A DNA stretch of 64,000 nt, taken from NCBI GenBank assembly GCA_018260615.1, contig JAGWDQ010000060.1, forward strand, positions 1,981 to 65,980. The letters are read 5' to 3'. Of the stretch, positions 13,004 to 42,431 are shown piece after piece (positions within the stretch are counted from its first letter, which is position 1; every line of letters begins with the position of its first letter). Both the position numbers and the translations under genes were made by a program. The notes under the pieces were generated by a model. It did not search any database. It had not been told where the DNA came from and was given only the letters and a program-made list of their open reading frames with translations. The stretch comes from Candidatus Altarchaeum sp. (lineage in GTDB: Archaea; Altiarchaeota; Altiarchaeia; Altiarchaeales; Altiarchaeaceae).

Positions 13004-13065
13004 CCTGCTGCATCATTTGCAAAATTTAATGTTTTTGGAAATTTTTATTTAAAAACAAGAAGACA

Positions 13066-13680: not shown

Positions 13681-13715
13681 AAACATAATTGCAATTCCAT
13701 AGAAATTTATAAAAT

Positions 13716-14168: not shown

Positions 14169-14174
14169 TTTAAT

Positions 14175-14411: not shown

Positions 14412-14804
14412 GTTAAGTAATCAGATTAAGTTAGATTATAAATAATTAAATTGTCATTAATTAAGAATAACTAATATTGAATTACTAAAACAGGAAGTTC
14501 CATATTTATATTTTAATGTTAATTTTTTAATGTTAATTTGACAATGGATTAATAAAATTTTCAAAACGCAAGACATCAGTTTGTAATAGAAAATAACTTA
14601 TCTTTATATCAAAAATGACGGATATTAACAAGATCGAAAAACAAAAGTGATTGAACAACAACAAGAAATTTATGCCGATGAGGAAATTTATGAAATTTTG
14701 CACCCCGCAGTTAAGGAATTGTTTAATTAAAAATGCCAAATATCAAAATTCATATATGGTTAACACAATCTAATTTATAGCCCAAATACAAAAAATAGGG
14801 AAAG

Positions 14805-15290
14805 ATGAAAAATAAAACTAAAAACAGGTTGGAGCGAAAGTGGCAGAATTTGCCATTACATCATATAGATGCGTGTGTTGTAATAGAAGTTTTAATACAA
14901 CAAAAAGAATGCGAAGATTGTAAAAATTATTTGAACAAGGTTGGCTACAAATGCAGGAGTGCTTTATCTGTTTCTGCTCTTGGTGAAATAGTTATGTGTT
15001 CAATCAAAAAATTTGAGGAAGAAACAGAAGGCGGCAAAGTATCACTTTTTATTACTGACTTAGTAAATAAAAGAAAAATTGATTTTTCAGCACCGCAATT
15101 TGAGACATATGCAATAGTTGAAAAAATAAAAAAAATTGAAAGCAGAGTAGAACCAATGGATGCTTTAAATCTCGCAACTGCAATAACAGAAAACGCTGAT
15201 GTGTTTGTAACAATGGATAGCAAACTCGTGGGAAATAAGAAACTTGAATCCGCGTTTAAAATCAAAATTAAACACCCGCGCGATGTGTAG
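14805..15290 (+). CDS. PIN-domain protein
   Basis: Shows the PIN acidic quartet pattern: HHIDACVVIE, GEIV, MDALNLATAI, FVTMDSKL. Confidence 0.65.
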   Translation: MKNKTKNRLERKWQNLPLHHIDACVVIEVLIQQKECEDCKNYLNKVGYKCRSALSVSALGEIVMCSIKKFEEETEGGKVSLFITDLVNKRKIDFSAPQFETYAIVEKIKKIESRVEPMDALNLATAITENADVFVTMDSKLVGNKKLESAFKIKIKHPRDV

Positions 15291-15584
15291 TTTCTCTCCT
15301 CATTCTTTTTATAAGTTCTACTGCACTTTCATCTTTGTATTCGTCTTGTTTGATGCTTTTGTGAATGCTTTCCAACAGATCATCCAGTTTGGGATCTCCA
15401 AATCCTGTTTTTTTGTGTTCCATTTTATAAAATTGATGAAAAAATTTGATATTAATTAAGATTGAACTTAAATATAGAAATAAAAAACCTGAATTTGCCT
15501 TTGTAACAAGAAAAGCCCTTCGGGCAAATCTTACTGAAATCTTTGAGATTTCAATCTTTAAAAATCTGTAAGATTTTGAAATAA

Positions 15585-15745
15585 CTAAAATTGTATCCTC
15601 TCAAAATTTCAGGGCAATTTTAAATTTATAATTTAAAATACACGAAGAAAGTGAGCGTAAATATAAAAATTTAGTATTTTTCACTCGTAAAGTAGATATA
15701 GATAATTCAATTTACCTTGTTTTATTGAGAGGATACTAAAATTGT
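15585..15745. repeat. MITE-like element with terminal inverted repeats (gtatcctctcaa / ttgagaggatac)
   Basis: Left TIR at 15593-15604 and right TIR at 15725-15736. Only one copy in the window. Confidence 0.45.
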
Positions 15746-15905
15746 TATTTTCAAAACGTAGAGTTTTGAAAATATCTGAGCAACAGCGAGGTGATTTTCA
15801 AAAACGAAGTTTTTGAAAATATGAGAGCGAAGCGATTTCAAACTTGTTTGAAATACGGGAACGAAGTGAACGTAACTTATTTTCAAAACGCAGAGATTTG
15901 GAAAT
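15745..15905. repeat. Hairpin-plus-tail repeat array (four units)
   Basis: Hairpin units are attttcaaaa..ttttgaaaat, attttcaaaaac..gtttttgaaaat and atttcaaac..gtttgaaat. Each is followed by a tail such as gagcaacagcgaggtg, gagcgaagcg or gaacgaagtgaacg. Confidence 0.7.
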
Positions 15906-16024
15906 ATCCAAATGAAATGGGGTTATACTTTCCAGATAAGAGAATCTTATACTTTCCCGATAAGTAAATCGCATACTATTTATAATACTATAAAAACATA
16001 AATCTTTAAGATTGAAAAACAAAA

Positions 16025-24698: not shown

Positions 24699-25562
24699 TT
24701 ATTTTAATTTTGCCGGATTTCCACAGCATTTTTTATATTTTTTCCCGCTTCCGCAAGGACAGGGATCGTTTCTTCCTGTTTTTTCTCTCTTTTTGTTTTT
24801 CTCGTCGCTCACAACATCAGGGTATTTTTCTGTCTTTCGTCCACCATAATATCTTTCAAAATAATAGTTCAGATTTTTATCCGAGAAATGATCCCACAGA
24901 TTACTTGTGCATCGAATATACTCTTTATGTGTGCCTGTTCCTTCATAAAGATCCTTCAGATCATCCATATCACATATTCGGAATGGTCCCGTGTCACATC
25001 GTTCGTGTGATTCCTTTACCAATTCAAATAATTCCTTATTTCTTATCTCGGCTATATCTGGCAGAGCAAGAGATATTAGAAGTTTATCTTCCTCCTCTCT
25101 TAAAAATTGTTTGCACAATTCAACAGTTCTCTCCTTAACATCCGGATTTAAAATTGCCTTTGCACACAATGTTTCAATTGCGGCAATTCTAACATACATA
25201 TCCGAAGATTTATCCAGTGCGATACTTTTGATGTTGTCATAATATCCCAGACCAAAAGAATACAATATAGCCGATAAATGTTCTGTAATCCAGTCATCCA
25301 ATTCTTCGGTTCTCTGACTTATCATATATTTCAATATTTCAAAGGACTTTTCATCTCCCTTCAAACCCAGTATAAAAAATACATGATACGGACACCATGA
25401 GTCTCCTGGTCCATCTCGCTTCCAGTAATCATCTTTTTGCACTATCTCAAACAATCCTTTATAAATTTCATCATCTTCTCGTTTTACAATTTCTTCTATT
25501 ATTTCTCTATCAACCATAAGTCCGGATTTTATAAATTTTCCAATTAATTGTTTTGTGTCCAT
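24699..25562 (-). CDS. SEC-C motif protein (hypothetical)
   Basis: C-terminal [16 protein letters not shown] is the SEC-C metal-binding motif. Confidence 0.6.
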
Positions 25563-25614: not shown

Positions 25615-26832
25615 TTATTTAACAACCCATTTCACAATCTCACCGGCGTTTATTCTCGCATTTGGATAAATAACAGTTCCGGGAAGAATTGTGGTATTTA
25701 TTCCCGTCTTTACATTATCTCCGATTATTGCCCCCAGCTTAATTCTTCCGCTGTCTATTACTTTGTCATTGAGCGTAACCTTTATGCATGCATTATCGTG
25801 CCGTAAATTTGCGATGTTTGTTCCCGCCCCCAAATTGCAGTGTTCTCCGATTATTGAATCTCCTACATAACTTAAATGAGGGACATTTGTATTGCTCATA
25901 ATTACTGAATTTTTGATTTCAACTGCGTTTCCGATGTGGCAGTTGTTTCCGACTGAAGTATAAGGCCTTATAAATGTATTAGGCCCTATTTTACAGTTCT
26001 TTCCAATGTAACAGGGTCCGATAATATAACTTCCATTCAAAATTTCCGTGCCTTCACCAACGATGATGTTGCCTTTAATTGTTACTCTTTCTTCAATATT
26101 TCCGTAAATTTCGCTTTTAATATTTTTAAGTAAAATTTCGTTTGCAGCAAGTAAATCCCACGGCTTTCCAACATCCATCCAGAATTCATTATTGTCCATC
26201 GCATAGCCATAAATTTCCTTGTTTTTTATTAAAATTTTTATTGCGTCTGTGATTTCGTATTCCGCTCTTTCACTTTTTCCCAGATTTTCTGTTAAATGAA
26301 AAATTTCCTCGTCAAATAAGTAAATTCCAGCATTGATGAGATTGCTTTTCGGGTTTTTCGGTTTCTCTTCAATGAGCGATATTCGGTGACTTTCGTTTTC
26401 AATTTCAACGACACCGTAATCAGAAGGGTTTTCAACTTTTGTCAGGCACATTGCATTTTTTTTGTTGCCTTCATCTGCGAAATTTATAAAATTTTTTATT
26501 ACATTTTCACTTACAACAATATCTCCGTTCATAACGATAAATTTGTTCTTTATTTTCTCCTTTAAGGTTAATATAGCATTTGCGGTTCCGAGCTGTTCTT
26601 TTTGTTCAATGTATTCGAGCTCTGCATTATTAAATTTATTTCCGAAGTGCTGCATAACAACTTCTTTTTTATATCCGACGACAACATAAATTTTTTTGAA
26701 AAATTTTGAAAGGACTTCCAAATTTCTCTCTAAAATCGGCTTTCCTGCAACGGGAAGCATTGGTTTTGGTTTCGTTAATGTTAATGGTCGCATTCTTTTG
26801 CCCTCTCCGCCTGCTAATAATACGCATTCCAT
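25615..26832 (-). CDS. Bifunctional sugar-1-phosphate nucleotidylyltransferase/acetyltransferase (archaeal GlmU-like)
   Basis: N-terminal LLAGGEGKRMRPLTLTKPKPMLPV, with C-terminal left-handed beta-helix hexapeptide repeats. Confidence 0.85.
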   Translation of the reverse strand: MECVLLAGGEGKRMRPLTLTKPKPMLPVAGKPILERNLEVLSKFFKKIYVVVGYKKEVVMQHFGNKFNNAELEYIEQKEQLGTANAILTLKEKIKNKFIVMNGDIVVSENVIKNFINFADEGNKKNAMCLTKVENPSDYGVVEIENESHRISLIEEKPKNPKSNLINAGIYLFDEEIFHLTENLGKSERAEYEITDAIKILIKNKEIYGYAMDNNEFWMDVGKPWDLLAANEILLKNIKSEIYGNIEERVTIKGNIIVGEGTEILNGSYIIGPCYIGKNCKIGPNTFIRPYTSVGNNCHIGNAVEIKNSVIMSNTNVPHLSYVGDSIIGEHCNLGAGTNIANLRHDNACIKVTLNDKVIDSGRIKLGAIIGDNVKTGINTTILPGTVIYPNARINAGEIVKWVVK

Positions 26833-27091: not shown

Positions 27092-27116
27092 TCTGTATAT
27101 AATTTGTTTTTTAAAT

Positions 27117-27172
27117 TTATTTGTTTATTTTATTTGTTTATTTTATTTGTTTATTTTATTTGTTTATTTATT
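27117..27172. repeat. Tandem repeat, 13-bp unit (atttgtttatttt) x about 4
   Basis: A g recurs at 27123, 27136, 27149 and 27162. The array lies upstream of the paralog array. Confidence 0.8.
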
Positions 27173-27268
27173 TTAAATCTTATTTATATAATAACAACTT
27201 TAATCTGATTAAAGTAGGTTTTTAAAATTTAAATTTAAAATTTAATAAAAATTTAAGAGGTGAAAAAA

Positions 27269-28192
27269 ATGAATGAAACGAAAAGCAACAAAACAATAAC
27301 GGAAAATTTTTTTGAATATTTAAGGTATCATCCGATAAGCAGTAAATCGTTTATCTTATATTTTTTGGGTTTGCTGGGGGCAATTATTATTTTCTTTTTA
27401 ACAGGAGAAACATACATTTTTAGTATTGTTCAGATTACCTGTACTCTATTATTATTTTGGTTTTTGGTTGTTCCAATCGCATTAAAAACGAGAAGTAAGT
27501 ATATGGTTTATTCTACTCTCTTTCCGTTTGTGTTTTTAGGTTTGTTCATTGTTGCGTACCTATTTTTCATGCTCATCAACATAAACATCGCTGAACTGAT
27601 TAAGTTATTGGTAAGAGAACAGCCATTAGTCGGTGCATTTGTTATGTTAGCAATAATTCTCGGCTCTGTTGCATTTTTTATTTACCTTTTGATAAAATAC
27701 CAAAAATCAGATGTGTGGTTTCAGAGTTTATGGATACAAGAAGGAGGAGTTATTGTAAAGACCGCTGATAAAATTTATTCGACACAGGACGGATACAGCG
27801 AAAGACCTTATTCCTGTCAAATGAAAATTTCTAATTTAAATTTTTCAGATATTGAAAATTTTGCGAAATTGCTCGCTAAAAATTTAATAATTATCAACTG
27901 GAAAAACCGGGAAAATTCGGTTAAGATGTGGCTTCTTGTGAGGAGAAGTTTCATTACCTATTTTGATGTATTCTATTCGGAAAATCTCGGCTCGTGGATT
28001 GAAATAAACAAGGATTGAAAACTTGTGGTTTTTATTGCAAAGCCAGATTATAAAATCATCGGAAAAGAGATAACTTATCATATACTTTGCAGTAATATTG
28101 CAGAAAAATTTGAACAGTCATTTACTGAATTTGCGAAAGGAAGCAACGATAGCAAAATTAATTCAATTAAAATTTTAAAAGGTGAAAAATGA
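27269..28192 (+). pseudogene. Membrane-protein paralog 1 of the five-gene array, interrupted by an in-frame TGA
   Basis: TGA at 28016-28018 is in frame. Downstream, the same frame continues KLVVFIAKPDYKIIGKEITYHILCSNIAEKFEQSFTEFAKGSNDSKINSIKILKGEK*, matching the family C-terminus. The start at ATG 27269 is chosen by homology to paralog 2. Confidence 0.6.
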
Positions 28193-29124
28193 ATGAAACA
28201 GGAAAAAGCAACAAAACAATAACGGAAAATTTTTTTGAATACTTAAGGTATCATCCGATAAGCAGTAAATTACAGATATTATTTTTTGTTGGATGTTTGG
28301 GCATACTTATTGCTTCTTTCTTATTCCCAAATATTTCCTCTTTTATGTCATTTCCTATTTGGATAGTATATTTCTTTTTGATGTGGCTTCCTATTGTTCC
28401 GATTGCATTGAAAACGAGAAGTAAATATGCCATTTCTCTCGCTATTGCTATAATTGGCTTTTTGTTGTTGTTTATCTTATTATCTGTCATACAATATTTG
28501 TTTCCGGATATTATATCTGCCATAATTTCAAAAGCAATTATATTAATGACAAGGGAACAGCCGTTATTTGGTGCATTGCTTATCACAGCAGTAATTGTTG
28601 GATTTTTTGGGCTTTGGATGAAATACAGTAAATCAGAGTTTGGGATTCAGGATGTATGGATACAAAAAGGAGGTGTTATTGGAAATGCAGCCAGTCAAAT
28701 TTATTCAACCCAGGATGGATATAGTGAAAGACCATATTCATATCAAATGAAAATTTCCGGTTTAAATTTTTCCGATATTGAAAATTTTGCGAAATTTCTT
28801 GCGAAAAATTTGATAATCATCAACTGGAAAAACCGGGAAAATTCGGTTAAGATGTGGCTTTTTGTAACGAGAAGCTTCATTAGTTATTTTGATATATTTT
28901 ACTCTAAAAATGAAAATCTTGGCACATGGATTGAAATAAACAAAGAGGGAAAAATAATCGTTTTCATAGCGAAGCCGGATTATAAAAATATTTATCGGGA
29001 AGTAACTTATCACACATTATGCAAAAATTTAGCAGAAAAATTTGAACAGTCATTTATTGAATTTGCGAAAGGAAGCAAGGATGATAAAATTAATTCAGTT
29101 AAAATTTTAAAAGGTGAAAAATGA
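28189..29124 (+). CDS. Membrane-protein paralog 2 (unrecognised family)
   Basis: About 4 hydrophobic helices followed by the conserved C-terminal domain. ATGA overlaps with both neighbours. Confidence 0.75.
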   Translation: MNETGKSNKTITENFFEYLRYHPISSKLQILFFVGCLGILIASFLFPNISSFMSFPIWIVYFFLMWLPIVPIALKTRSKYAISLAIAIIGFLLLFILLSVIQYLFPDIISAIISKAIILMTREQPLFGALLITAVIVGFFGLWMKYSKSEFGIQDVWIQKGGVIGNAASQIYSTQDGYSERPYSYQMKISGLNFSDIENFAKFLAKNLIIINWKNRENSVKMWLFVTRSFISYFDIFYSKNENLGTWIEINKEGKIIVFIAKPDYKNIYREVTYHTLCKNLAEKFEQSFIEFAKGSKDDKINSVKILKGEK

Positions 29125-30128
29125 ACGAAACAACATTTTTGTATTTATTTGTAGGGGCAATAATAATATTAATTATAATTATGACTGTAATAATCGGATG
29201 GAAATTTAATCTGTGGAGAAGACAAAAATTTGTAAAAAATTTGAATGAAAGGGAAAAGAAAAGATGGCAACGACTTGAAAAATACCGAGTATCCAAGGGA
29301 GGTTATAAAAAAGGTTTTGTAATTTTGTTTGCTGCTATGATTATTCCCTGGATATTGATGTTGGTTTTTCACATATCTTTTAAAACAACGATGTTGTTTG
29401 GGGCAGTAATATTTATTCCGGTTCTCATTCCTCATCTTTGGTTTGTATTTAAAAGAAAGAACAGGGACGAAATAATAACTGTTATTTTTTTATTTGGGAT
29501 ATATATGGGTGTATGTGTGTGGTATCTCGGATATGAATTTGTTAAATACTTTTTACAAATTACCCTTTTCATTTTTATTTTTTACTGGCAGCTATTCAAA
29601 ATGAAAGGTGAACAGGAACAAATGGCAATATACTGTAATCTGATTGTAAGTGCCGGATTGGATATGGACTCACAACTTGACGGCTATTCTCAAAGACCAT
29701 TCAGTAAAGAATCTGCTGCGATAAAAGAAATATTCAAAGCAGGCGAAAATAATTTAAATTTAAATTTCAAAAAAATCGCGGATGATTTTGGAAAAACAAC
29801 AGGTAAAAAAATGATATTGATGGACTGGAAAATTAATGATAATGAAGCGGTGTTTTATCCGGTTACTGCTTATCTGCTTATCGCGCAAATTTATTTAATA
29901 TTGCCGTCACTTGGAAAAGATAAAATTTCGTGGATTAAATTAAGTAGTGATGGAAGAATAACTGTTTTTGTATCAAAAGGCGATTATGATAGAATTCTGG
30001 AGAAAGTAACTTATCACACTCTATGCCAAATCCTCATAGAAAGATTTGAACGAGCATTCATTGAATTTGCGAAAGGAAGCAATGATGATAAAATTAATGC
30101 AATTAAAATTTTAAAAGGCGAAAAATGA
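29121..30128 (+). CDS. Membrane-protein paralog 3 (unrecognised family)
   Basis: Same architecture, with the basic loop REKKRWQRLEKYR after the first TM helix. ATGA overlaps. Confidence 0.75.
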   Translation: MNETTFLYLFVGAIIILIIIMTVIIGWKFNLWRRQKFVKNLNEREKKRWQRLEKYRVSKGGYKKGFVILFAAMIIPWILMLVFHISFKTTMLFGAVIFIPVLIPHLWFVFKRKNRDEIITVIFLFGIYMGVCVWYLGYEFVKYFLQITLFIFIFYWQLFKMKGEQEQMAIYCNLIVSAGLDMDSQLDGYSQRPFSKESAAIKEIFKAGENNLNLNFKKIADDFGKTTGKKMILMDWKINDNEAVFYPVTAYLLIAQIYLILPSLGKDKISWIKLSSDGRITVFVSKGDYDRILEKVTYHTLCQILIERFERAFIEFAKGSNDDKINAIKILKGEK

Positions 30129-31123
30129 ACGAACAAATATCCGAAATTATTTTATCTGTCGTATTGCAGATAGTATTTGCAGGACTTATTGTCGGAATGG
30201 TGTTGCTAATGATATATTATTATGACAAAAGAGAGAAATGGATAAAAAGTATGAATGATTCGGAGAGAAAGAAATGGGAACAATATCAAAAATATAAAAA
30301 ATCTCAAGGGGGCGGATTGAAGGGAATAATATTTGTTTTCTCTTTTATTGCAGTTATTGTTTTGGGGGCAGTTTTCCTGGATATCAAAATAATAATGCTT
30401 TTCCTCGCAATAATTTATACACTCTTCTTTCTTATCCATGTGCGATTTGTATTAAAAACAAGAAACAAGGACGGGGTTATCTTGATTATAGGGATAATAT
30501 TTATGTTGATTTGGATTGTGTCTTTCCTATTTGAAAAACATTCTGGTGATGCGTTATTTATGTCGATAGGAATGCTTCTGCTAATGTATGGGAATAGTGG
30601 TGTAAAGGCGGAAAAAAGAAATATGAATTTGCATCATAATCTCGTTGTAACCTCAGGGTGTGAAATTGATTCGCATTTAGACGGTTATTCTCAAAGACCT
30701 TTCAGTATGGAATCCAATGCCATAAAAGAAATTTTTAGGGATGATAAAAACACATTGAAATTAAATTTTATGAAAATTTCAGAAAATTTTGCAAAAACAA
30801 TGGGAAAGGACTTAATTTTTATGGACTGGAAGGTTAGCGAAAATGAAGCATTATTTTATCCTGTTGTGTTTCCCATGTCCCAGATATATTTGATGTTTCA
30901 CTCGCTCAGGAAAAACAAACTTTCCTGGATAAAGATAAATAACGAAGGAAGGATAACTGTTTTTGTGTCAAAAGATGACTATAAAAAAATTTTAGAGCAG
31001 GTAACTTATCACGCATTGTGCAGGAATATTGCAGAAAAATTTGAACGAGCATTTATTGAATTTGCGAAAGGAAGCAAAGATAATAAATTTAATGCAATTA
31101 AAATTTTAAGAGGTGAAAAATGA
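30125..31123 (+). CDS. Membrane-protein paralog 4 (unrecognised family)
   Basis: Same architecture and closest to paralog 3. ATGA overlaps. Confidence 0.75.
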   Translation: MNEQISEIILSVVLQIVFAGLIVGMVLLMIYYYDKREKWIKSMNDSERKKWEQYQKYKKSQGGGLKGIIFVFSFIAVIVLGAVFLDIKIIMLFLAIIYTLFFLIHVRFVLKTRNKDGVILIIGIIFMLIWIVSFLFEKHSGDALFMSIGMLLLMYGNSGVKAEKRNMNLHHNLVVTSGCEIDSHLDGYSQRPFSMESNAIKEIFRDDKNTLKLNFMKISENFAKTMGKDLIFMDWKVSENEALFYPVVFPMSQIYLMFHSLRKNKLSWIKINNEGRITVFVSKDDYKKILEQVTYHALCRNIAEKFERAFIEFAKGSKDNKFNAIKILRGEK

Positions 31124-32046
31124 ACGAAATCAATAAAAAACAAAAGGAACTTGAAACAAATTATGAAATTTACAGACAGAATAAATCTTTGAGGTCAGGT
31201 GCGTTACTTTTTCTCTTCATATCATTTCTTTGTATTGGGATGTGTGTTTTATTATATTTTGTATTTCACATTTCAATTAATCCCGTTTATGGAATGATGT
31301 TTCTATTGATTTTGGCGATGGGGTCTATGTCAATCATCGCTGGAAAAATTGCGTTAAAAACAAGAAATGTTGTTGGGATTATGCTGTTTATTATATCATT
31401 TGCAACGACAATTGAGTTGATACTTCTTATGTATTTTTCTGAACTTAATGAATGGGAGATGGTGGTAAGAGCATACATTCTGTTCGCTGTAATCATAATA
31501 TTTGTGCTTTATATTGCCAAGAAAAAATTTAATATAAAAATGTATGGAAGTCAAGCAATGCTCCTTGATTATAGAAATGTGATAATCAAAGAAGGCGAGC
31601 AAATTGATATTCTGACAGACGGATATTCCCAGAGGCCATTTAGCAAGGAAAGTGAAGCAATAAAAAATGTGGAAAATTTTAAAAATAACGCAGAAAATTT
31701 TGCAAAAATTTTAGGAAAAGAAGGGATAATTATGGACTGGAATACAAAGGAAAATTCAATAACTTTATTTCCGCCAATATTTATGGAAGATTTATTCGTA
31801 TCTGTCTTATATCTGATTCAATTAACATTCCGAAAAAAGAAACTTTCTATGGTTAAAATATCTTCTGACGGGCAAATAACTGTATTCATATCAGATGATG
31901 ACTATAAAAGAATAACAAGACCTGTTGCTTATCATCTCCTGTGCAGAGGATTGGCGGAGAAATTTGAACGAGCATTTGTTGAATTTGCGAAAGGAAATAA
32001 AGATAGCAAAATTAATACATTAAAAATTTTGAAAGGTGAAAAATAA
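31120..32046 (+). CDS. Membrane-protein paralog 5 (unrecognised family, most divergent)
   Basis: Retains DGYSQRPFSKESEAIK, MDW, ITVFISDDDY, AYHLLC and AEKFERAFVEFAKGNKDSKINTLKILKGEK. Confidence 0.75.
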   Translation: MNEINKKQKELETNYEIYRQNKSLRSGALLFLFISFLCIGMCVLLYFVFHISINPVYGMMFLLILAMGSMSIIAGKIALKTRNVVGIMLFIISFATTIELILLMYFSELNEWEMVVRAYILFAVIIIFVLYIAKKKFNIKMYGSQAMLLDYRNVIIKEGEQIDILTDGYSQRPFSKESEAIKNVENFKNNAENFAKILGKEGIIMDWNTKENSITLFPPIFMEDLFVSVLYLIQLTFRKKKLSMVKISSDGQITVFISDDDYKRITRPVAYHLLCRGLAEKFERAFVEFAKGNKDSKINTLKILKGEK

Positions 32047-32065
32047 AAATTGTTAAAATGTTAAA

Positions 32066-33361
32066 ATGGACAAACTAAAAAAGTATGCTACATTGATGTT
32101 GACCTGCCTAAAAGAATATGAAACAACGGGGCAAAAGATGCCCTGCATTTTGAACTATGCGGACTGCGCCAGAGAGATGGGATATTTACATTTTTCAATC
32201 AGAGTATACGAATGGCTGCTTGACGAATATCCTGATAATATGGAAGTAAAAAAATCCCATAAAAAAGCAAAAGATATGCTGGAGTTAGACAGCGCTGGTG
32301 CATTTATGCAAAAATCTGGTTTTCCGGAACCAGATCTTTTGATAAGGGAAAATTTTCACGGGATAACGCTCAGTTTGTGTATGATCGCCAAAAACGAGGA
32401 AAATAACATCAAACGGGCGATAGAAAGCGTGCGTCTGATAGCAGACGAAATGATTGTAGTAGATACCGGATCTACTGATAATACCCCTAAAATCGCGAAG
32501 GCGTATGGCGCAAAAGTGTTTGATTACAAATGGAATGATAATTTCAGCGAAGCCAGAAATTTTTCCCTTGAACAGGCAGGTATGGAATGGATTTTAGTTC
32601 TCGATGCTGATGAGACGATAGCGTATGAAGATCTGTTCTATATAAAAGAGACCATAAAAGAAATGGAAATAGCAAAGAAATCGGGAAAGCTCGAAGGTAA
32701 AAGAGCTGATGGATTCGCACTCGCCATAAGAGAATACACTTATTTTAATATGCTTGGTGGGTTTGACACGAAAGATGACTTTTATGCAGAGAGCAAACCC
32801 TACAAATCATGGATAGAACAACGGCTCGTTCGTCTCTTTCGCAATATGCCTCACATAAGGTATATGTATCCGGTCTATGAAATAATTGAGGAATCGATAT
32901 GCACAAATGGGGGTACTTTTTATCATGTAGGCATTCCCATACATCATTTTGGACGCACCGTCAGCATGGAAAAACAGCGGAGCAAAAGGAGGTACTACAT
33001 CAAAATTTTAGAGGAACATTTGAAGATATCGGAGGAATGCGATAACTATAAGGCAGTTTATTGCACCAATCTGGGCAACGCATACACTTTTATGGGCGAA
33101 CTTGAGAATGCTATGAAATACTTCAAAAAGGCGCTGGAATACGATGATAGTATATCCGTTACTTATGTTTGTATCGGTAAGAATGCGATGATGAGGAAAA
33201 ATATCATTGAAGCAATCAAATATTTTGAGAAAGCCATTGAAATGGAGAAGAACAACCCCGAGCCGTTTCGTCTTCTCGTCCAATGTTACAATAGTTGTTA
33301 TAAGTTTAGTGAAGCCAAACGTGTAATGGAGGAAGCACATCGCGAGGGGCACGAAATTTAA
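32066..33361 (+). CDS. Family 2 glycosyltransferase with flanking TPR-like regions
   Basis: GT2 core: SLCMIAKNEENNI...VVDTGSTDNT...NFSEARN...LDADE. C-terminal TPR repeats: LGNAYTFMGELENAMKYFKKALEYD... Confidence 0.8.
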   Translation: MDKLKKYATLMLTCLKEYETTGQKMPCILNYADCAREMGYLHFSIRVYEWLLDEYPDNMEVKKSHKKAKDMLELDSAGAFMQKSGFPEPDLLIRENFHGITLSLCMIAKNEENNIKRAIESVRLIADEMIVVDTGSTDNTPKIAKAYGAKVFDYKWNDNFSEARNFSLEQAGMEWILVLDADETIAYEDLFYIKETIKEMEIAKKSGKLEGKRADGFALAIREYTYFNMLGGFDTKDDFYAESKPYKSWIEQRLVRLFRNMPHIRYMYPVYEIIEESICTNGGTFYHVGIPIHHFGRTVSMEKQRSKRRYYIKILEEHLKISEECDNYKAVYCTNLGNAYTFMGELENAMKYFKKALEYDDSISVTYVCIGKNAMMRKNIIEAIKYFEKAIEMEKNNPEPFRLLVQCYNSCYKFSEAKRVMEEAHREGHEI

Positions 33362-33417: not shown

Positions 33418-33981
33418 ATGAACTACATAATCATAGATTTGGAAGCAACATGCGACGATAAAGTTAAGAACATGGTGCATGAAATAATTGAAATCGGGGC
33501 TGTAAAAATAAACGAAAACGGAGAAATTATTGATGCATTTGACGAATTTGTCAAGCCAATTATCAATCCGACATTAAGCGAATTTTGCAAAAATCTTACC
33601 CAAATAAACCAGTCGCAAACAGATAAAGCGGAAAATTTTTTAACAGTTATTGAAAAATTTAAAAGGTGGCTCAATGATGATTATTTCCTTTGCTCCTGGG
33701 GACATTATGATAGAAAGCAACTGATAAATGATTGTTCATTGCACAATCTTGACAGCAAATGGACAGAAAGGCACATAAGCATTAAGCACGAGTATGCAAA
33801 AATCAATAAATGCAAACCATGCGGCATGTCAAAGGCATTAGAAAAAGAACACATAACGCTGACAGGAACACATCACAGGGGCATTGATGATGCAAAAAAT
33901 ATTGCAAAAATTTTTATAAAGTATTTTGAGGTATTCAAGAAAATCATAAATGAACAGGTCTCACAAAATAAAGAAATTTAA
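33418..33981 (+). CDS. DEDDh 3'-5' exonuclease (KapD/ERI-1-like)
   Basis: Exo I is IIIDLEAT, Exo II is SWGHYD and Exo III is HRGIDDAKN. Confidence 0.8.
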   Translation: MNYIIIDLEATCDDKVKNMVHEIIEIGAVKINENGEIIDAFDEFVKPIINPTLSEFCKNLTQINQSQTDKAENFLTVIEKFKRWLNDDYFLCSWGHYDRKQLINDCSLHNLDSKWTERHISIKHEYAKINKCKPCGMSKALEKEHITLTGTHHRGIDDAKNIAKIFIKYFEVFKKIINEQVSQNKEI

Positions 33982-33995
33982 TAAAAAAATTTCCA

Positions 33996-34604
33996 ATGAA
34001 TAAAGAACAATTTGCCCGGACATTATCTATATTGGGCAAGGAACACTGCATTGATGTAATTGAAACATTATACATTAAGGAATGGTGCACTGCAACCGAA
34101 ATTTCAGAGGAATTGAAAATTCACACGGCAACAGCAGTAAGTTATTTATCTGACCTGCACGATATTGGGCTTGCGGAAAGGAGAATAAGGGGGGGAAAAT
34201 ATAAGGATGCTTATGAATATTCCTTAAAAAGCACATCAATAAATTTAAATCTAAATTTTAAGGAAATAGTTGAAGAGGAAGGTAAGGGCATAACCGAAAG
34301 AGCAGGACTTATAAAAGTGAAAGAAATCGTGAGTGATAATTTGAATTATGAATGGGATGATGAGAAGCAAAAAATTTTAAAGATCAATATTGTCAGTGCA
34401 GGAATCAGGCGGGGTGTCCAGGAATCAATTGAATTAAATACATTAGAAGGAAGGTTTTTGTGGTGTGTGCCTTACCCGTCTGAAGAAGGTCTGTCGGTAG
34501 AACAAATTTGCGAAAATGCGGGAATAAAAAATCCGATAGAAATTAAAAAGATTTTGAAATTTGTTGAGATTTTGAAAGAAAAAAGAGTTATTGAAATTTT
34601 ATAA
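33996..34604 (+). CDS. Winged-helix (ArsR/TrmB-like) DNA-binding protein
   Basis: The N-terminal IDVIETL...CTATEISEELKIHTATAVSYLSDLHDIGLAERR region is wHTH-like. The function of the C-terminal half is unknown. Confidence 0.6.
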   Translation: MNKEQFARTLSILGKEHCIDVIETLYIKEWCTATEISEELKIHTATAVSYLSDLHDIGLAERRIRGGKYKDAYEYSLKSTSINLNLNFKEIVEEEGKGITERAGLIKVKEIVSDNLNYEWDDEKQKILKINIVSAGIRRGVQESIELNTLEGRFLWCVPYPSEEGLSVEQICENAGIKNPIEIKKILKFVEILKEKRVIEIL

Positions 34605-34639: not shown

Positions 34640-35608
34640 TCAAATTCTTTCAATAACTGATATTAATTTTGTATAAAACATCCTGTTTACAACCAAAGGA
34701 GAGACCTCTTTAGGTAAAGCGTGTATGTAATCAGAATACTTTTTCTTTATGATGAAAACATCTATTGTTTTTATTATCGTCTTTGTTATTTCATGAGTCC
34801 TGTTTTCCTCACCTAAAATATGTTTCATTTTTAATCTGCAACTTTCAATGTCCTCATCGGTAATTATTACGGATAACATACCAAGGTCATATAAATCCTT
34901 AAACTTTTCTCTATTCCTAAAAGCAATTAATTTATCTGCAAATAAATCTCCAACAGACAAACATTTAAATTGTAATTCCTTCTTATATTCCTGATATTTA
35001 TAAATTTTCAACCTAATATCCTGCATATTCCACTTTAATGCAGGTGGTTTATGTTTTATATTTATCTGAACAAGAATGTGATTAAAAATGCCTGACAAAT
35101 ACTCTTTGTTTACAAGGTCCTTTCTATAAGCAATTCTTAAATTTCTTGCTACGACTTTGGATGGAAACACTCTTGCAAAAGTTATAGTTCCTGAAATTTT
35201 ATCAAAATACATAGGATAAAATTTTCCATAGATTAAATTTTTCGAACTCCTGTTTTTATACTTCGAATCAATGGAGGAAATTAACAAATCCATTTCCTTT
35301 AATTTCTCATTTAATTCATCAAACTTCTCCAAAACAAATTTGTTTGTTCTGCTCTCTGTTTCTATGTTAAAATCCAAATCTACCGAAAACCTCTGAAGAT
35401 TTAATGGCAAGAGGGATTGTATGCATGTGCCTCCTTTAAAGAATAAATCCATATTTGAGAATTCTTTTAAAATGAACATTGTATCATATTCAAATATTTG
35501 TTTTTCAAAATCCATGTGATTTATTCCTTCACGATTAGAATATTCTCTTATTTTTGCCCCGTTAAATGCCTCTTTTCCCCAAAATAACGACTTAATATCC
35601 TCTGACAT
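34640..35608 (-). CDS. Nucleotidyltransferase AbiEii/AbiGii-family toxin (DUF1814-like)
   Basis: The motif FFKGGTCIQSL...QRFSVDLDFNIE matches the family pattern GGTAL...R.S.DiDF. Confidence 0.72.
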   Translation of the reverse strand: MSEDIKSLFWGKEAFNGAKIREYSNREGINHMDFEKQIFEYDTMFILKEFSNMDLFFKGGTCIQSLLPLNLQRFSVDLDFNIETESRTNKFVLEKFDELNEKLKEMDLLISSIDSKYKNRSSKNLIYGKFYPMYFDKISGTITFARVFPSKVVARNLRIAYRKDLVNKEYLSGIFNHILVQINIKHKPPALKWNMQDIRLKIYKYQEYKKELQFKCLSVGDLFADKLIAFRNREKFKDLYDLGMLSVIITDEDIESCRLKMKHILGEENRTHEITKTIIKTIDVFIIKKKYSDYIHALPKEVSPLVVNRMFYTKLISVIERI

Positions 35609-36371
35609 TTTTTCCGGATTTTTTTATAATTTTCAAAATATTTACAGGAATATTTTTATCCCCATCAAAATATTTTTTTAAATAATACAGATTAGGTTTC
35701 TTTTCACATAACTTTTCAAATTCATCATTTGTCATGCCATAGTCAAGTGCTTTCATAGTATATTCAAACAGGTCATTTTTTGGAAAATCAATTTCTTCCA
35801 ATATGATTTCTATGTCAGGTAAATTTAAATCACCATTAAATTTTAATTTTCGGATATTATGTGAAGATTTTCTTATAATTATCGCATATCCTCTTGTTAG
35901 TGCGTCAGTTATAATTTTGTTTTTATTACAATGTTTTGGAATTTCATAAGGTAAAATTGTCGCAAATTTACTTAAATTTTCAACTATTCTCCCAGCCAAC
36001 ATGTTATATTTGTTTTTTGGCAGAGCAATATCTATTTTTCTTTGATACATCGCATGATCAGTTAACCCGTGCAAAAACAGGGCAGATTCTCCGGTTATAT
36101 AGTAATTCCTCATAAGGAGCTTGTCTATCCCGGAAAGTATATTCACCTCTTTCTTTTTTATAGTTTGTCTATTGTATTTAAACAACTGTTGTCTTTCTTT
36201 GCCGGGCTTCCATAAAAGGATATCTTTACCGGCTAATGTCCAGCACACCCTTTCTGCTTTTGGATAAGTGATTCTAAGAGATAAAGCTATTTTTCCCAAA
36301 CTGGTCCATTCTGTAAAGTGTTCTAATCCGTTTACAATTTCCTCATCTATTTTTATAGGGATGAAGTCCAT
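35592..36371 (-). CDS. Putative AbiEi-like antitoxin/transcriptional regulator
   Basis: Overlaps the AbiEii gene by 17 nt and lies upstream and co-directional. It is 259 aa with a wHTH-like N-terminal region. The assignment is based on context. Confidence 0.5.
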   Translation of the reverse strand: MDFIPIKIDEEIVNGLEHFTEWTSLGKIALSLRITYPKAERVCWTLAGKDILLWKPGKERQQLFKYNRQTIKKKEVNILSGIDKLLMRNYYITGESALFLHGLTDHAMYQRKIDIALPKNKYNMLAGRIVENLSKFATILPYEIPKHCNKNKIITDALTRGYAIIIRKSSHNIRKLKFNGDLNLPDIEIILEEIDFPKNDLFEYTMKALDYGMTNDEFEKLCEKKPNLYYLKKYFDGDKNIPVNILKIIKKSGKNVRGY

Positions 36372-37382: not shown

Positions 37383-38582
37383 ATGAATGAGAAATATGAT
37401 TATGATGTCGTGATAGTAGGAGCAGGACCTGCTGGAAGCATATGCGCGAGATATTTAGCAGAGAAAGGTGTTAAGGTATTGGTAGTTGAAAAACGACAGG
37501 AGATTGGTGCGCCCAAAAGATGCGGAGAGGGCATTGTTGTGGAAAGTTTAGAAGGTTTTAATTTCGATCCAAATGCAAACTGGATTACAAACAAGATTCA
37601 TGGCTTTTCTATATATTCCCCAAATAGAAAAAGAGTTAGTATGAGTTGGAACGAACCTAAAGGATGGATCGTTGAAAGAAAAATCTTTGAGAAATACTTG
37701 GCAGTTGATGCAATAAACGCGGGCGCACGATATATGGTCAAAACCAGAGCAATTGAGATAATGAAAGAAGGTGAAAAAATTTATGGAGTAAAGGTAGAAA
37801 ATATGGGTGACAAATTTGAGATAAGATCAAAGATAGTCATTGCGGCGGATGGTGTTGATTCAAAGATCGCAAAGAGCGCTGGTATCAATACAGTGAACAA
37901 GTTGTCAGATTACCATTCAGGTTTTCAGTATGAAATGGCAGGAGTAAAAAATTGTGATTCAAAACAAATTCATATATATGTCGGCAATACGGTCGCACCA
38001 AAAGGTTATATATGGATATTTCCAAAGGGGGAAAGAGTTGCTAATGTAGGCATTGTAATTTTAGCAAAAGAGTCTTCTGACAAGAGACGAGCGAAGGACT
38101 ATCTTGATAAATTTATAGAAACGCATTCCGAAATTTTTGAGGGCGCTAGTCCTATTGAAATTAATGCAGGAGGCGTTCCCGTAAGTGGAGCTGTTGAAAC
38201 ATTTGTCCATGATAATTTTATGATAATTGGTGATGCGGCACAACTTGTAAATCCCATACACGGCGGAGGGATTGTCCTTGCTATGAACTCTGGAAATATC
38301 GCCGCAGAGGTCGCTTCTGAGGCGTTAAAAGAAGGTAACACATCAAAAGAGAAACTTTATAGATATGAAAAAATATGGCGTGAAACTATAGGTGTTAAGA
38401 TGCAAAAGCTTCTGCAGATAAGAATGGTAATTGAAAAACTGTCTGATGATGATTTCAACCTTCTTGGAGATATCCTTTCTGGCGAAGATGTTACAAAATT
38501 GATAGGGGGGAAATACAAGTTCGTGTTGAATATGCTTGTAAAGAACCCGAAGGCAATGCTTTTATTAAACAAATTTATGTAA
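37383..38582 (+). CDS. Geranylgeranyl reductase (digeranylgeranylglycerophospholipid reductase family)
   Basis: YDVVIVGAGPAGS, KRCGEG, AADGVDSKIAK, GYIWIFPKG and IGDAAQLVNPIHGGGI. Confidence 0.9.
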   Translation: MNEKYDYDVVIVGAGPAGSICARYLAEKGVKVLVVEKRQEIGAPKRCGEGIVVESLEGFNFDPNANWITNKIHGFSIYSPNRKRVSMSWNEPKGWIVERKIFEKYLAVDAINAGARYMVKTRAIEIMKEGEKIYGVKVENMGDKFEIRSKIVIAADGVDSKIAKSAGINTVNKLSDYHSGFQYEMAGVKNCDSKQIHIYVGNTVAPKGYIWIFPKGERVANVGIVILAKESSDKRRAKDYLDKFIETHSEIFEGASPIEINAGGVPVSGAVETFVHDNFMIIGDAAQLVNPIHGGGIVLAMNSGNIAAEVASEALKEGNTSKEKLYRYEKIWRETIGVKMQKLLQIRMVIEKLSDDDFNLLGDILSGEDVTKLIGGKYKFVLNMLVKNPKAMLLLNKFM

Positions 38583-41222: not shown

Positions 41223-42431
41223 CTAAATCAAAAATTTCTTGACGAGCGGTAAAAAATGTGGCGCTTTTGTCAACATCGTTTTGGGAAGGAATCCATAATC
41301 CCCGTCTGCCAATTTCATTATCTCCTCTGGAGTAAGAATATCTGCAAGCATGTTGAGTTCATTATCGTTCAATTTCTCAAAGAACATCCTTACTTTAAGA
41401 GCCATATTTATCTTCTTTTTAAACATATCATCCCACTTCCTCTTATATTCGTGTAATCTTTCCTCAGATAAATCCCCTTCCTTTAATGCTCTCGTTCCGA
41501 CTTCTGCAGCAAGTATTCCTGATTTAAGTGCAATCGCAATACCTCCCCCATGTATAGGACTCACATGCTGCGCGGCATCACCGATGGCTATTAGACCACC
41601 ATATACAAATTTATTTACGCCGCCACTTAATGGTATTCCGCCAGCATTGACCTCAATTGGACTCGCATATTCAAAAATTGTCTTGTGTTCTTTTATAAAA
41701 GCATCAAGATATTCTTTTGTTCTTTTTCCATTAGAATTTATGTTGTTTGTGTTAATGCCAATACCAACATTTGCGATACCTTTACCTTTAGGAAAAATCC
41801 ATATATATCCCTTCGGGGCAATATCGTTTCCAAAATATAAATGAACGCAACTAAAATCCAAATTTTTGAGTCCAGCCATCTCGTATTGAAACCCGGATAC
41901 ATAATCTTCCAATTTGTTTGTCGTATTTAAACCAGCAGATTTTGCGATCTTTGAATCAACTCCGTCTGCCGCGATAACCAATTTTGATCGTATTATAATC
42001 TCTTCATCCATATATTCTGCGCGAATGCCAGAAACTATGCCCTCATCCTTTATGACTTCAATCGCCCTTGTTTTTACCATATATTTTGCACCAGCATTGA
42101 TAGCTTCAATTGCCAGATGTTTTTCAAATATTTTCCTTTCAAGTATATAGCTTGTTGCTTTGTTCCACTTTACATTGATACTTTTCTTGCCGTTTGGCGC
42201 GTACAATGTAGTTCCATAAATCTCACTATCCACCCATGCACGATTTGGTTTTATTTGTGCTTCTGTGAGAGATTCACACGCAACCATTTCACCACACCGT
42301 TTTGGTGCCCCAATTTCTTGTTTCTTTTCAACAACAAGAACACAGTTACCTGCAAAGGCAAAATCTCGTGCTGATATGCTTCCTGCCGGACCAGCACCAA
42401 CTATAACAACATCTACATGTTTTTCTTTCAT
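41223..42431 (-). CDS. Geranylgeranyl reductase, inverted paralog of 37383-38582
   Basis: Same motif set: VDVVIVGAGPAGS, KRCGE, AADGVDSKIAK, GYIWIFPKG, IGDAAQHVSPIHGGGI. Long identical peptide stretches are shared with the other copy. Confidence 0.9.
   Translation of the reverse strand: MKEKHVDVVIVGAGPAGSISARDFAFAGNCVLVVEKKQEIGAPKRCGEMVACESLTEAQIKPNRAWVDSEIYGTTLYAPNGKKSINVKWNKATSYILERKIFEKHLAIEAINAGAKYMVKTRAIEVIKDEGIVSGIRAEYMDEEIIIRSKLVIAADGVDSKIAKSAGLNTTNKLEDYVSGFQYEMAGLKNLDFSCVHLYFGNDIAPKGYIWIFPKGKGIANVGIGINTNNINSNGKRTKEYLDAFIKEHKTIFEYASPIEVNAGGIPLSGGVNKFVYGGLIAIGDAAQHVSPIHGGGIAIALKSGILAAEVGTRALKEGDLSEERLHEYKRKWDDMFKKKINMALKVRMFFEKLNDNELNMLADILTPEEIMKLADGDYGFLPKTMLTKAPHFLPLVKKFLI

Follow-up and report, generated by a model that had tools for sequence, protein, structure and literature searches.

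A tandem membrane-protein gene array in Altiarchaeales and its candidate link to a conserved unit of membrane protein, winged-helix protein and promoter dyad

The array and its promoter region

The window, i.e., the whole stretch of 64,000 nucleotides from Candidatus Altarchaeum sp. analyzed here, carries on its + strand five consecutive paralogous reading frames (P1–P5, 27269–32046), preceded by a putative promoter region and followed by three further genes on the same strand:

27116–27173, no strand assigned: 13-bp tandem repeat TTTATTTGTTTAT (4.5 copies), located 5′ of the promoter core
27183–27190, + strand: TATA-like box tttatata, read from the sequence; putatively serves the array as archaeal core promoter
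27197–27215, no strand assigned: dyad ACTTTAatctgatTAAAGT, consensus ACTT[CT]A-N7-T[GA]AAGT, putative operator of the winged-helix (wHTH) partner
27269–28192, + strand: P1, family copy interrupted by an in-frame TGA at 28016–28018; closest paralog P2, with mosaic near-identical tracts
28189–29124, + strand: P2, intact, 311 aa; about 4 transmembrane helices and a cytoplasmic C-terminal domain (predicted)
29121–30128, + strand: P3, intact, 335 aa; about 5 transmembrane helices and the C-terminal domain (predicted)
30125–31123, + strand: P4, intact, 332 aa; AF2 model of a transmembrane helical bundle and an alpha/beta domain
31120–32046, + strand: P5, intact, 308 aa; final array member
32066–33361, + strand: GT2 glycosyltransferase with C-terminal TPR repeats (Pfam Glycos_transf_2, 1.6e-21; TPR_1, 1.3e-12)
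33418–33981, + strand: DEDDh/RNase_T-type exonuclease (Pfam RNase_T, 4.8e-22)
33996–34604, + strand: wHTH partner, 202 aa; N-terminal ArsR/Lrs14/TFE-like winged helix and a conserved C-terminal half

The five frames had been described in an earlier note on this DNA and were found where it placed them, with the stop of one copy overlapping the start of the next in the tetranucleotide ATGA at all four junctions, again as reported. P1, which the note took for an intact reading frame, is not one: it contains a TGA stop that the note overlooked, at a position where P2 encodes Gly, so that only four copies of the array are intact. The open frame of P1 extends over 249 codons up to this stop, and the remaining 57 codons are in frame and conserved. 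P1 is probably a pseudogene or the source of a 249-aa truncated product; its stop codon, like the other split copies, could be an assembly error. The product of P4 is identical to CVT88_00345 of Altiarchaeales archaeon HGW-Altiarchaeales-1.

Comparison of the paralogs bore out the architecture proposed earlier, i.e., a variable transmembrane half joined to a conserved C-terminal domain: the former share 11–29% identity (52% for the P1/P2 pair), and the latter, of ~160 aa, 42–65% (81% for P1/P2). P1/P2 and P3/P4 form the closest pairs, and all of the motifs listed in the note were found (KTRN-type juxtamembrane, DGYSxRP, DY, YHxLC, and EKFE..F.EFAKG). The near-identical nucleotide tracts it described in P1 and P2, which are 74% identical overall, consist of exact runs of 38 and 28 nt (27281–27347) and of 42 nt (27893–27934). 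The note had further proposed a lost sixth copy upstream of P1; the basis for this is ~20 AT-rich bases that include a GGTGA ribosome-binding motif. Similar sequence also precedes the first array copy at another locus (L029), and a conserved 5′ leader with a ribosome-binding site accounts for the stretch equally well.

In the promoter region, the 13-bp tandem repeat noted earlier exists (TRF score 109, 97% matches), and its expansion is limited to this genome: exact copies number four in the window, one each in L029 and L033, and none in L001 and L003. The repeat is thus a lineage-specific expansion, found among the loci compared in the window genome only. The tttatata box, a putative core promoter of the array, is shared by the window, L029, and L003; L001 has the diverged form ttataact.

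The membrane-protein family: fold, spread, and neighbors

In the AF2 model of P4 (pLDDT 80.5), a helical bundle whose outer loops measure ~2–6 residues is followed by the alpha/beta domain. Hydropathy and the positive-inside rule place the C-terminal domain together with the Lys/Arg-rich loops on one face of the membrane, and in this predicted topology the constant half would face the compartment of the DNA-binding partner. Long forms carry a fifth transmembrane helix as well as an additional domain that faces outward, which gives them a sensor-like layout.

No named family was matched by the membrane proteins in Pfam, NCBIfam, PHROGs (E ≥ 0.04 at best), PADLOC (one chance-level transmembrane match, otherwise none), or a search of PDB sequences (best E for the family profile, 0.044). 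In Pfam, P1–P3 had zero matches at E ≤ 1, P4–P5 had spurious sub-threshold transmembrane matches only (E 0.19–0.99, 9.6–11.8 bits), and 10 distant relatives had zero matches at E ≤ 0.1 except spurious transmembrane ones. Foldseek likewise returned no named family for the C-terminal domain in PDB (best E = 0.084, TM ≤ 0.35) or BFVD (best E = 0.028, TM 0.27), and the best value for the full-length model in PDB was E = 0.56. The C-terminal domain shows no ligand or catalytic motif that could be recognized, and relatives of the membrane family were not found among the 2.9 million viral contigs of IMG/VR. Overall, these results agree with the earlier statement that the conserved domain matches no named family, and support the view of an undescribed system in which a constant soluble part is joined to a membrane part that varies.

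The family extends beyond Altiarchaeales. A full HMMER scan recovered 283 representatives at E ≤ 1e-3, including 107 at E ≤ 1e-10, with matches spanning both the transmembrane region and the C-terminal domain. The carriers, all uncultivated, are bacterial and archaeal metagenome-assembled genomes (Aminicenantes, Acidobacteriota, Ignavibacteria, Bacteroidales, KSB1, and Methanobacteriota). Most bacterial loci hold a single copy, with two copies in L008/9, L032, L064, L080, and L110 and three in L105. In Altiarchaeales, copy number ranges from 2 to 5 and differs among close relatives.

This distribution bears on the model put forward in the earlier note, in which the five paralogs form a hetero-oligomeric membrane complex acting with the GT2-TPR protein in surface glycosylation. 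The ATGA overlaps, which couple the copies translationally, would suit such a complex, as would the position of the GT2-TPR gene, whose identity Pfam confirmed and which sits between the array and the partner gene, 19 nt downstream of the array; an archaeal GlmU gene lies divergently upstream of the array, and is also the neighbor in L029. However, an obligate hetero-oligomer of tandem paralogs was not supported, since most relatives are single-copy and the paralogs do not co-occur family-wide; in addition, one of the five copies is interrupted. Nor is the association with GT2-TPR conserved across loci: the gene follows the array in the window and L002, with a 5′-truncated copy in L001; the Altiarchaeal arrays L029, L033, and L003–L006 lack it, and it is not found among the recurrent neighbor families of the bacterial and other archaeal loci (including L007). 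Moreover, the window GT2-TPR is 91% identical to the L002 and L001 copies, compared to 73% for the flanking RNase_T gene and 64% for the wHTH gene, which suggests a recent insertion. GT2-TPR is a lineage-specific insert outside the conserved module, and the glycosylation model, largely refuted by this comparative context, now seems very improbable.

The wHTH partner and the dyad

Two conserved parts of the locus, namely a family-wide wHTH partner and the dyad at 27197–27215, had been overlooked in the earlier note. An HMM built from bacterial partners matches the wHTH gene of the window with E = 6.8e-25 over profile positions 4–198. The same HMM picked out the gene adjoining that of the membrane protein in 19 of 20 bacterial loci, and further matches were obtained in L001, L002, L007 (directly upstream), L029 (immediately 3′ of the array), and L031 (upstream). 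In the reverse search, the membrane gene was found in 63 of 80 partner loci, nearly always directly upstream of the partner and on the same strand; among the remaining loci, 12 had flanks too short to judge and 4 matched the N-terminal wHTH only. Relatives that keep the N-terminal wHTH alone lack the membrane gene, which ties the C-terminal half of the partner to the membrane protein. The two genes overlap or are separated by gaps of a few nt, and this tight coupling suggests that both products may be made together in fixed proportion.

No third gene family recurred (at most 8 of 51 loci), and a search for fusions of the membrane protein with the wHTH protein found none. In several Altiarchaeal loci (the window, L001, L002, and L034), the RNase_T gene immediately precedes the wHTH gene. 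The arrays L003–L006 have the dyad and no partner within the 10–19 kb of contig examined, while L034 has the partner and no array, which indicates that the pair can be separated in a genome.

Positioned 3′ of the TATA box and ahead of the expected transcription start, the dyad occurs once in the window, where 0.01 occurrences are expected; the Altiarchaeal array loci have one dyad each. Across 686 kb, the strict pattern was matched 45 times (0.3 expected), and 44 of these matches precede the first module gene by <250 nt. When ≤1 mismatch was allowed, 65 of 78 testable loci, bacterial as well as archaeal, had the dyad ahead of their first module gene; L007 and L030 are without it. A dyad-symmetric promoter site is thus co-conserved with the regulator, as looked for in an autoregulated wHTH operon. 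In L015, L050, L060, and L085, the half-sites are mixed (ACTTCA...TAAAGT), which would disrupt an RNA stem and instead fits a protein dimer recognizing half-sites.

A possible membrane-linked switch and its known counterparts

Taken together, a module of operator dyad, membrane protein, and wHTH protein is well supported, given that the family, its distribution, the pairing of the two genes, and the dyad were all observed. As to its mechanism, we tentatively propose, with somewhat less than even confidence, that the array is the amplified membrane component of a conserved two-gene unit, probably autoregulated, which acts as a membrane-linked switch. A wHTH dimer would bind the dyad, which overlaps both the promoter and the expected start of transcription, and would autoregulate the operon, more likely through repression than activation. 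The membrane protein, with a predicted topology of 4–5 transmembrane helices, almost no extracytoplasmic loops, and a conserved cytoplasmic KTRN loop, would dock the regulator at the membrane through its constant cytoplasmic domain, while the variable transmembrane bundle may sense a signal within the membrane, altering docking and in turn transcription. Membrane sequestration of the wHTH regulator, functionally similar to SdpI/SdpR, is probable under this scheme. In Altiarchaeales, the membrane gene would have been duplicated to 3–5 copies and the transmembrane bundles would have diverged to provide several sensors or immunity specificities for one regulator, with copies being added, converted, and lost as the arrays evolved.

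A plain local regulator with its cargo would account equally well for the dyad and the conserved gene pair. Here the wHTH protein would be a conventional dedicated repressor or activator that acts at the dyad and perceives a signal of its own via its C-terminal half, and the membrane proteins would be regulated effectors without feedback, e.g., in stress protection, transport, or immunity. The conserved non-wHTH middle and C-terminal half of the partner could bind a ligand, and the separability of the pair (L003–L006, L034) also favors this reading. We nonetheless consider it unlikely: conservation in the membrane protein is highest in a folded cytoplasmic domain without transport or catalytic signature, whereas the membrane part varies, and both the very close spacing of the two genes, which suggests products co-made in fixed proportion, and the missing membrane gene in relatives with the N-terminal wHTH only speak against simple cargo.

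Less likely still is a toxin–antitoxin or abortive-infection-like system, in which a membrane-damaging toxin would be restrained by a wHTH protein that autorepresses via the dyad. Such a system could account for a stand-alone pair of genes with a palindromic operator, variable contexts, and a patchy distribution in bacteria and archaea, for toxin–antitoxin or defense genes near some loci (AbiEii adjoining the window module and also in L030; PIN/RHH and SIR2-TPR in the neighborhood of L003), and for the tandem and broken copies, which suggest rapid turnover. However, PADLOC, PHROGs, and the 2.9 million viral contigs are without the membrane family, the remainder of the window consists of housekeeping genes, and polytopic proteins of 255–330 aa with a structured cytoplasmic domain are atypical as toxins of this kind. 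Neutralization in fixed proportion is also hard to reconcile with 3–5 “toxins” per single or distant “antitoxin” (none near L003–L006).

A bolder form of the membrane-linked switch, possible though on the whole doubtful, is that of an unrecognized bacterial and archaeal signaling or immunity system with in-membrane sensing, in which a domain of new fold captures and releases a double winged-helix regulator, a single operator is used across both domains of life, and the Altiarchaeales hold birth-and-death sensor arrays. Altiarchaeales have a double membrane; if this scenario is true, their arrays could represent a polymorphic immunity or sensor set against membrane-targeting agents.

The closest functional parallel is found in Bacillus subtilis, in which SdpI sequesters the ArsR-type autorepressor SdpR (PMC2910880). 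There too, a polytopic membrane protein is encoded beside a small wHTH regulator, although autoregulation is presumed from the dyad in our case, and one part of SdpI faces the signal while another faces the cytoplasm and captures the regulator, as we propose here. Transmembrane topology also varies among members of the SdpI family, whose homologs occur in bacteria and archaea (PMC2910880), as in the family described here. Membership in the SdpI family was rejected, as no SdpI sequence match was obtained (Pfam, E ≤ 1). In SdpI the cytoplasmic element consists of transmembrane segments and loops; here it is a folded domain of its own, ~160 aa in size. Unlike SdpR, the regulator is ~200 aa long with a second conserved half, is usually encoded 3′ of the membrane gene, and has a different operator.

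The N-terminal wHTH of the partner, ArsR/Lrs14-like at sub-threshold level and in this respect possibly similar to SdpR, aligns with ArsR/SmtB, Lrs14/Sta1, TFE, and Csa3-type domains, all with scores below cut-offs. Sub-threshold matches to ArsR/SmtB and SdpR models were limited to HTH_metalloreg for 2 of 13 members and SdpR for 1 of 13 (0.0054); NCBIfam Lrs14 and Sta1 match 7–8 of 13 members and the wHTH part of PADLOC Csa3 also matches, in each case below curated cut-offs. Against PDB, the N-terminal ~90 residues matched 2d1h (3e-4), TFE 1q1h (6e-4), and Lrs14-like 6cmv (1.5e-3), while residues ~95–200 matched nothing. What sets the partner apart from these regulators is its specific link to the membrane family and to the ACTTYA-N7-TRAAGT dyad.

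Among membrane proteins, the “tandem five-TM protein” family TIGR01218 of Gram-positive bacteria similarly comprises small multi-transmembrane proteins in tandem arrays. Membership was rejected here: the transmembrane region of P4 matches with E = 1.4e-4 and 21.7 bits, below the 35-bit cut-off, and the other four copies have no match. The P4 match covers transmembrane helices only, and the C-terminal domain that defines the present family has no counterpart in TIGR01218.

In BlaR1/BlaI, PadR-family regulators with adjacent membrane proteins, and Mlc-PtsG, a transcription factor is set by a membrane protein that is encoded beside it or acts on it. The resemblance to these systems is one of general logic alone, their domains being unrelated: no protease, PTS, or PadR signature appeared in any Pfam or NCBIfam scan. 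The unit of membrane family, wHTH protein, and dyad is widespread in uncultivated bacteria and archaea, and unnamed.

Tandem paralogs and the extent of their family

The array was described in the earlier note as five plus-strand paralogs coupled by ATGA. All five frames, and the ATGA stop/start overlap at each of the four junctions, were recovered, but P1 is interrupted:

27269-28192 (+), P1, paralogous frame with an in-frame TGA
28189-29124 (+), P2, paralogous frame
29121-30128 (+), P3, paralogous frame
30125-31123 (+), P4, paralogous frame, 100% identical to CVT88_00345 of Candidatus Altiarchaeales archaeon HGW-Altiarchaeales-1
31120-32046 (+), P5, paralogous frame

The TGA of P1 (28016-28018) falls where P2 encodes Gly and is followed by 57 further codons that are in frame and conserved. 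Because TGA is also the codon that normally ends P1–P4, P1 may be a recent pseudogene, encode a truncated product, or reflect an assembly error. Split family copies, in two or three frames each, were also seen at three related loci (L002 1173-2167; L029 3249-4190; L086 166-1012), and together with P1 these broken copies may represent either recurrent pseudogenisation within arrays or errors in metagenome-assembled genomes (MAGs).

The contrast between a variable membrane half and a constant C-terminal half held up: identity among paralogs was 11–29% in the transmembrane (TM) half (P1/P2: 52%) and 42–65% in the C-terminal domain (P1/P2: 81%). The near-identical tracts reported for P1 and P2 were likewise found. 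The two genes form a nucleotide mosaic, with ~98% identity over roughly the first 70 nt, 33–52% across much of the TM region, 96% at 27881-27940, and exact runs of 38, 28 and 42 nt, a pattern compatible with gene conversion or with a partial duplication of recent date.

No named family could be assigned, in agreement with the initial reading of the sequence. Searches of P1–P5 against Pfam, NCBIfam, PHROGs and PADLOC gave no significant match, nor did searches of 10 distant relatives against Pfam or NCBIfam. A profile of the C-terminal domain reached a best E-value of 0.044 against PDB sequences, with no match accepted. The full-length AlphaFold2 model of P4, built with the family alignment (pLDDT 80.5, pTM 0.73), predicts a bundle of membrane helices, joined on the outside by very short loops, and C-terminal to it an alpha/beta domain; modelled alone, the C-terminal domain had a pLDDT of 77.8 (>90 in its core). 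Best Foldseek E-values were 0.56 (full length) and 0.084 (domain) against PDB and 0.028 against BFVD, and no match to either database reached the acceptance threshold of E ≤ 0.001. The top matches (TRPV channels, an AMPK fragment, ArgR C-domains, and HHIV-2 VP16) were dismissed as chance similarities, with TM-scores ≤ 0.35. Among the resources searched (PDB and BFVD), the ~160-aa C-terminal domain as modelled has no known fold. Hydropathy and the positive-inside rule would place the Lys/Arg-rich loops, the KTRN loop, and the C-terminal domain on the cytoplasmic side; by hydropathy, P3 and P4 have one additional N-terminal helix.

Absence of the family outside the source genome, which the earlier note had named as part of a refuting condition, was not observed. 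A word-indexed search returned 15 clusters only, all Altiarchaeales-like, and the family profile, run through HMMER in full, retrieved 283 representatives at E ≤ 1e-3 (107 at E ≤ 1e-10) from bacteria and archaea, with alignments covering the TM region as well as the C-terminal domain. Every carrier is a MAG or metagenome contig. Bacterial carriers named from a genome scan with an alignment of 12 closer sequences were Aminicenantes, Acidobacteriota, Ignavibacteria, Bacteroidales, and KSB1 MAGs, and archaeal carriers also include Methanobacteriota MAGs. Most members are 255–300 aa long; the core common to the family is T.N after a TM helix, DG[YF][ST]xRP, [IV]S..DY, and [TS][FY][HD].LC. Long forms of 430–592 aa carry added TM helices and an extra domain, presumably outward-facing, and nothing was found when the extra domain of one of them was compared with the sequences of solved structures. 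Two IMG/VR scans recovered no family relatives on viral contigs, and a viral or mobile origin of the family was rejected on these grounds.

Membrane-gene copies number five in the window (one broken) and at L001, three at L029 (one split) and at L003–L006, and two at L033. Bacterial loci mostly have one, with two or three at a few. This suggests that tandem amplification is a trait of Altiarchaeales and no requirement of the family.

A conserved dyad and the winged-helix partner of the family

Upstream of every Altiarchaeal array lies a conserved non-coding block, i.e., a TATA-like box followed by AATAACAACTTTAA-N5-TTAAAGTAG, which is kept even at L003, where the copies have only ~45% protein identity to P4. 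The dyad itself, a 19-bp site (ACTTTAATCTGATTAAAGT), occurs a single time in the window (27198-27214, inside the 19-bp span 27197-27215, vs 0.01 expected in 64 kb) and once per Altiarchaeal locus that contains the array start. Bacterial modules have the identical consensus, ACTT[CT]A-N7-T[GA]AAGT, mainly 35–60 nt 5' of the aligned membrane-gene start. The strict pattern had 45 matches in 686 kb, at 45 separate loci (0.3 expected), and all but one of these (44/45) are <250 nt 5' of the first gene of the module. With ≤1 mismatch, the dyad was present in 65 of 78 testable loci; 80 such matches were found overall, vs ~12.6 expected for the whole dataset, and 67 of them fall inside upstream windows that make up 2.8% of bases. 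The arms are conserved in sequence without covarying, and mixed half-sites are present, which favours a protein-bound DNA operator and makes an RNA hairpin the less likely reading. The centre of the window's dyad lies ~20 nt 3' of the TATA box centre, and the site would thus overlap the expected transcription start, the usual place for an archaeal repressor. The 13-bp tandem repeat noticed in the putative promoter is also present, at 27116-27173, with four full copies, compared with one at L029 and L033 and none at L001 and L003. Since relatives do not conserve it, the repeat was rejected as an operator and is best read as a local expansion, not as a conserved signal.

At bacterial loci, the conserved neighbour is a gene right after the membrane gene, frequently overlapping it, for a ~200-aa protein with sub-threshold winged-helix (wHTH) matches (HVO_A0114, TrmB). 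An HMM made from nine bacterial copies found this partner at 19 of 20 bacterial loci and in the window at 33996-34604 (+) (E = 6.8e-25, profile positions 4-198). It was also detected at L001, L002, L007 (just 5' of the membrane gene), L029 (right after the array), and L031 (upstream). Conversely, a reverse metagenome scan with the partner alignment yielded 258 relatives, and among the loci of the best 80, 63 had a membrane gene, almost always immediately upstream of the partner and on the same strand, while 12 had flanks too short to judge. The remaining five had sufficient flank and no membrane gene: four match the N-terminal wHTH alone, and the fifth is L034, an Altiarchaeal partner without an array. 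Neighbour clustering of 51 loci ≥ 4 kb gave no third component, with the module's two genes in 46 and 42 loci and other families in at most 8. We are highly confident that the wHTH protein, one or more membrane proteins, and the dyad form a self-contained module, which is conserved in bacteria and archaea with otherwise unrelated neighbourhoods, and we consider it probable that the candidate dyad is bound by the wHTH protein.

The N-terminal half of the partner is an ArsR/Lrs14/TFE/Csa3-like winged helix, and its conserved second half had no match in the libraries or structures searched. No membrane–partner fusion was found among 183 proteins examined, and apparent overlaps at L081, L084, and L086 are open frames reaching upstream of the partner start. 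A separate group of ~250-aa proteins (L038–L047, L082) has only the N-terminal wHTH in common with the partner (residues 1–95 or fewer, 40–50% identity) and no membrane-family gene in the neighbourhood. One of these loci, L045, has an ACTTCA-N7-TAAAGT dyad upstream, which hints that the N-terminal wHTH may be the dyad-reading part.

Array and wHTH gene do not always adjoin: L003–L006 have dyad-bearing arrays without an adjoining wHTH gene, and L034 has the wHTH gene without an array. This separation in some Altiarchaeal genomes suggests that the module may be workable with its regulator encoded elsewhere.

Neighbouring genes and competing explanations

Genes flanking the array in the window include:

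24699-25562 (-), DUF1186 protein with a C-terminal SEC-C metal-binding motif (SEC-C 1.5e-10)
25615-26832, archaeal GlmU gene, adjoining the DUF1186 gene (TIGR03992, 1.8e-162)
32066-33361 (+), GT2-TPR glycosyltransferase gene
33418-33981 (+), RNase_T exonuclease gene, directly upstream of the wHTH gene
34640-35608 (-), AbiEii-type nucleotidyltransferase toxin (Pfam AbiEii 1.2e-18)
35592-36371 (-), 259-aa gene upstream of AbiEii and overlapping it, faint AbiEi match (PADLOC 0.007)
37383-38582 (+), geranylgeranyl-reductase paralog (GGR_cat 2.4e-26)
41223-42431 (-), geranylgeranyl-reductase paralog (GGR_cat 4.8e-25)

The two geranylgeranyl-reductase paralogs are <5 kb apart, with an FAD/NAD-binding protein and a 392-aa ORF without Pfam match between them.

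GT2-TPR does sit next to the array, as reported, but is not conserved with it, being found only in the window, at L002, and, lacking its first ~150 codons, at L001. L029 has the divergent GlmU neighbour seen in the window, but another gene directly 3' of its array. The GT2-TPR proteins (window 32066-33361, L001 6742-7587, L002 2234-3523) share 91% identity, vs 73% for RNase_T and 64% for the wHTH protein between the same lineages, which points to a recent insertion and would be explained by lateral movement in the recent past or by unusually strong constraint. We regard GT2-TPR as a passenger beside the module. The proposed hetero-oligomer of paralogs tied to surface glycosylation is contradicted by this comparative context and is highly improbable.

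A DEDDh/RNase_T exonuclease gene lies immediately 5' of the wHTH gene at four Altiarchaeal loci (window; L001 10501-11049; L002 6437-6985; L034 5913-6431), the last of them array-free, and is absent from L029 and L033. P1–P5, GT2-TPR, RNase_T, and the wHTH gene share a strand and may form a single operon; the three successive gaps after P5 measure 19, 56, and 14 nt.

AbiEii and the 259-aa gene are a probable type IV toxin–antitoxin pair, convergent with the wHTH gene. At L003, a defence-like neighbourhood 3' of the three-copy array (12366-17967 (+), 11659-12330 (-)) comprises two large TPR proteins, one of 1205 aa and the other a SIR2-TPR protein of 663 aa, in addition to a PIN/RHH toxin–antitoxin pair. 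Such genes close by in the window, at L030, and at L003 would suit a module that is itself a toxin–antitoxin or abortive-infection-like pair. However, there were no PADLOC, PHROGs, or viral matches, and the copy numbers are at odds with one-to-one neutralisation, which leaves this explanation quite improbable.

A possible membrane-to-DNA circuit

We propose that a dimer of the wHTH protein would bind the dyad and thereby regulate its own module, and that this regulator would dock on the membrane protein's constant cytoplasmic domain. The variable TM bundle would sense a signal and alter docking, presumably within the membrane because the bundle has almost no exposed loops. In Altiarchaeal arrays, where copies would be gained, converted, and lost over time, one regulator could then be served by several sensors or by several immunity specificities. 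Docking or sequestration of the regulator is put forward tentatively, as a possibility short of probable. It is fitted by the conserved membrane-protein surfaces, all predicted on the cytoplasmic side, by the tight coupling of the two genes, by relatives that have only the N-terminal wHTH and lack a membrane gene, and by long forms with an added outward-facing domain. The pair could instead be a plain regulator with a regulated membrane cargo and no feedback, which we consider unlikely.

The conserved pair and its DNA site span very distant uncultivated bacteria and archaea, and the concrete unit, i.e., a 19-bp site, a ~200-aa DNA-binding protein, and a ~160-aa cytoplasmic domain, makes function experimentally approachable. 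To our knowledge, gene regulation in Altiarchaeales is almost unexplored. If true, sequestration would add a new family to the few one-step membrane-to-DNA signalling devices, and open a first way into the study of how membrane or envelope responses are regulated in this order. The annotation of the window is also corrected, with the glycosyltransferase as a likely passenger, one array copy broken, and the 13-bp repeat as an apparent local expansion.

Neither of the two protein families nor the operator has a description in the resources searched: the membrane and wHTH proteins are "hypothetical" in all libraries searched, and literature searches on HVO_A0114 and Altiarchaeales paralog arrays returned no earlier description. 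That they form a system of their own, for signalling or immunity and with a new fold, is less likely than not but a serious possibility. Membrane proteins that are paired with a wHTH autoregulator are, as a general kind, already known. The proposed circuit would follow the logic of SdpI/SdpR (PMC2910880), in which a membrane protein docks a wHTH regulator in a signal-dependent manner, although the SdpI/SdpR proteins are unrelated to the membrane family and wHTH partner considered here.
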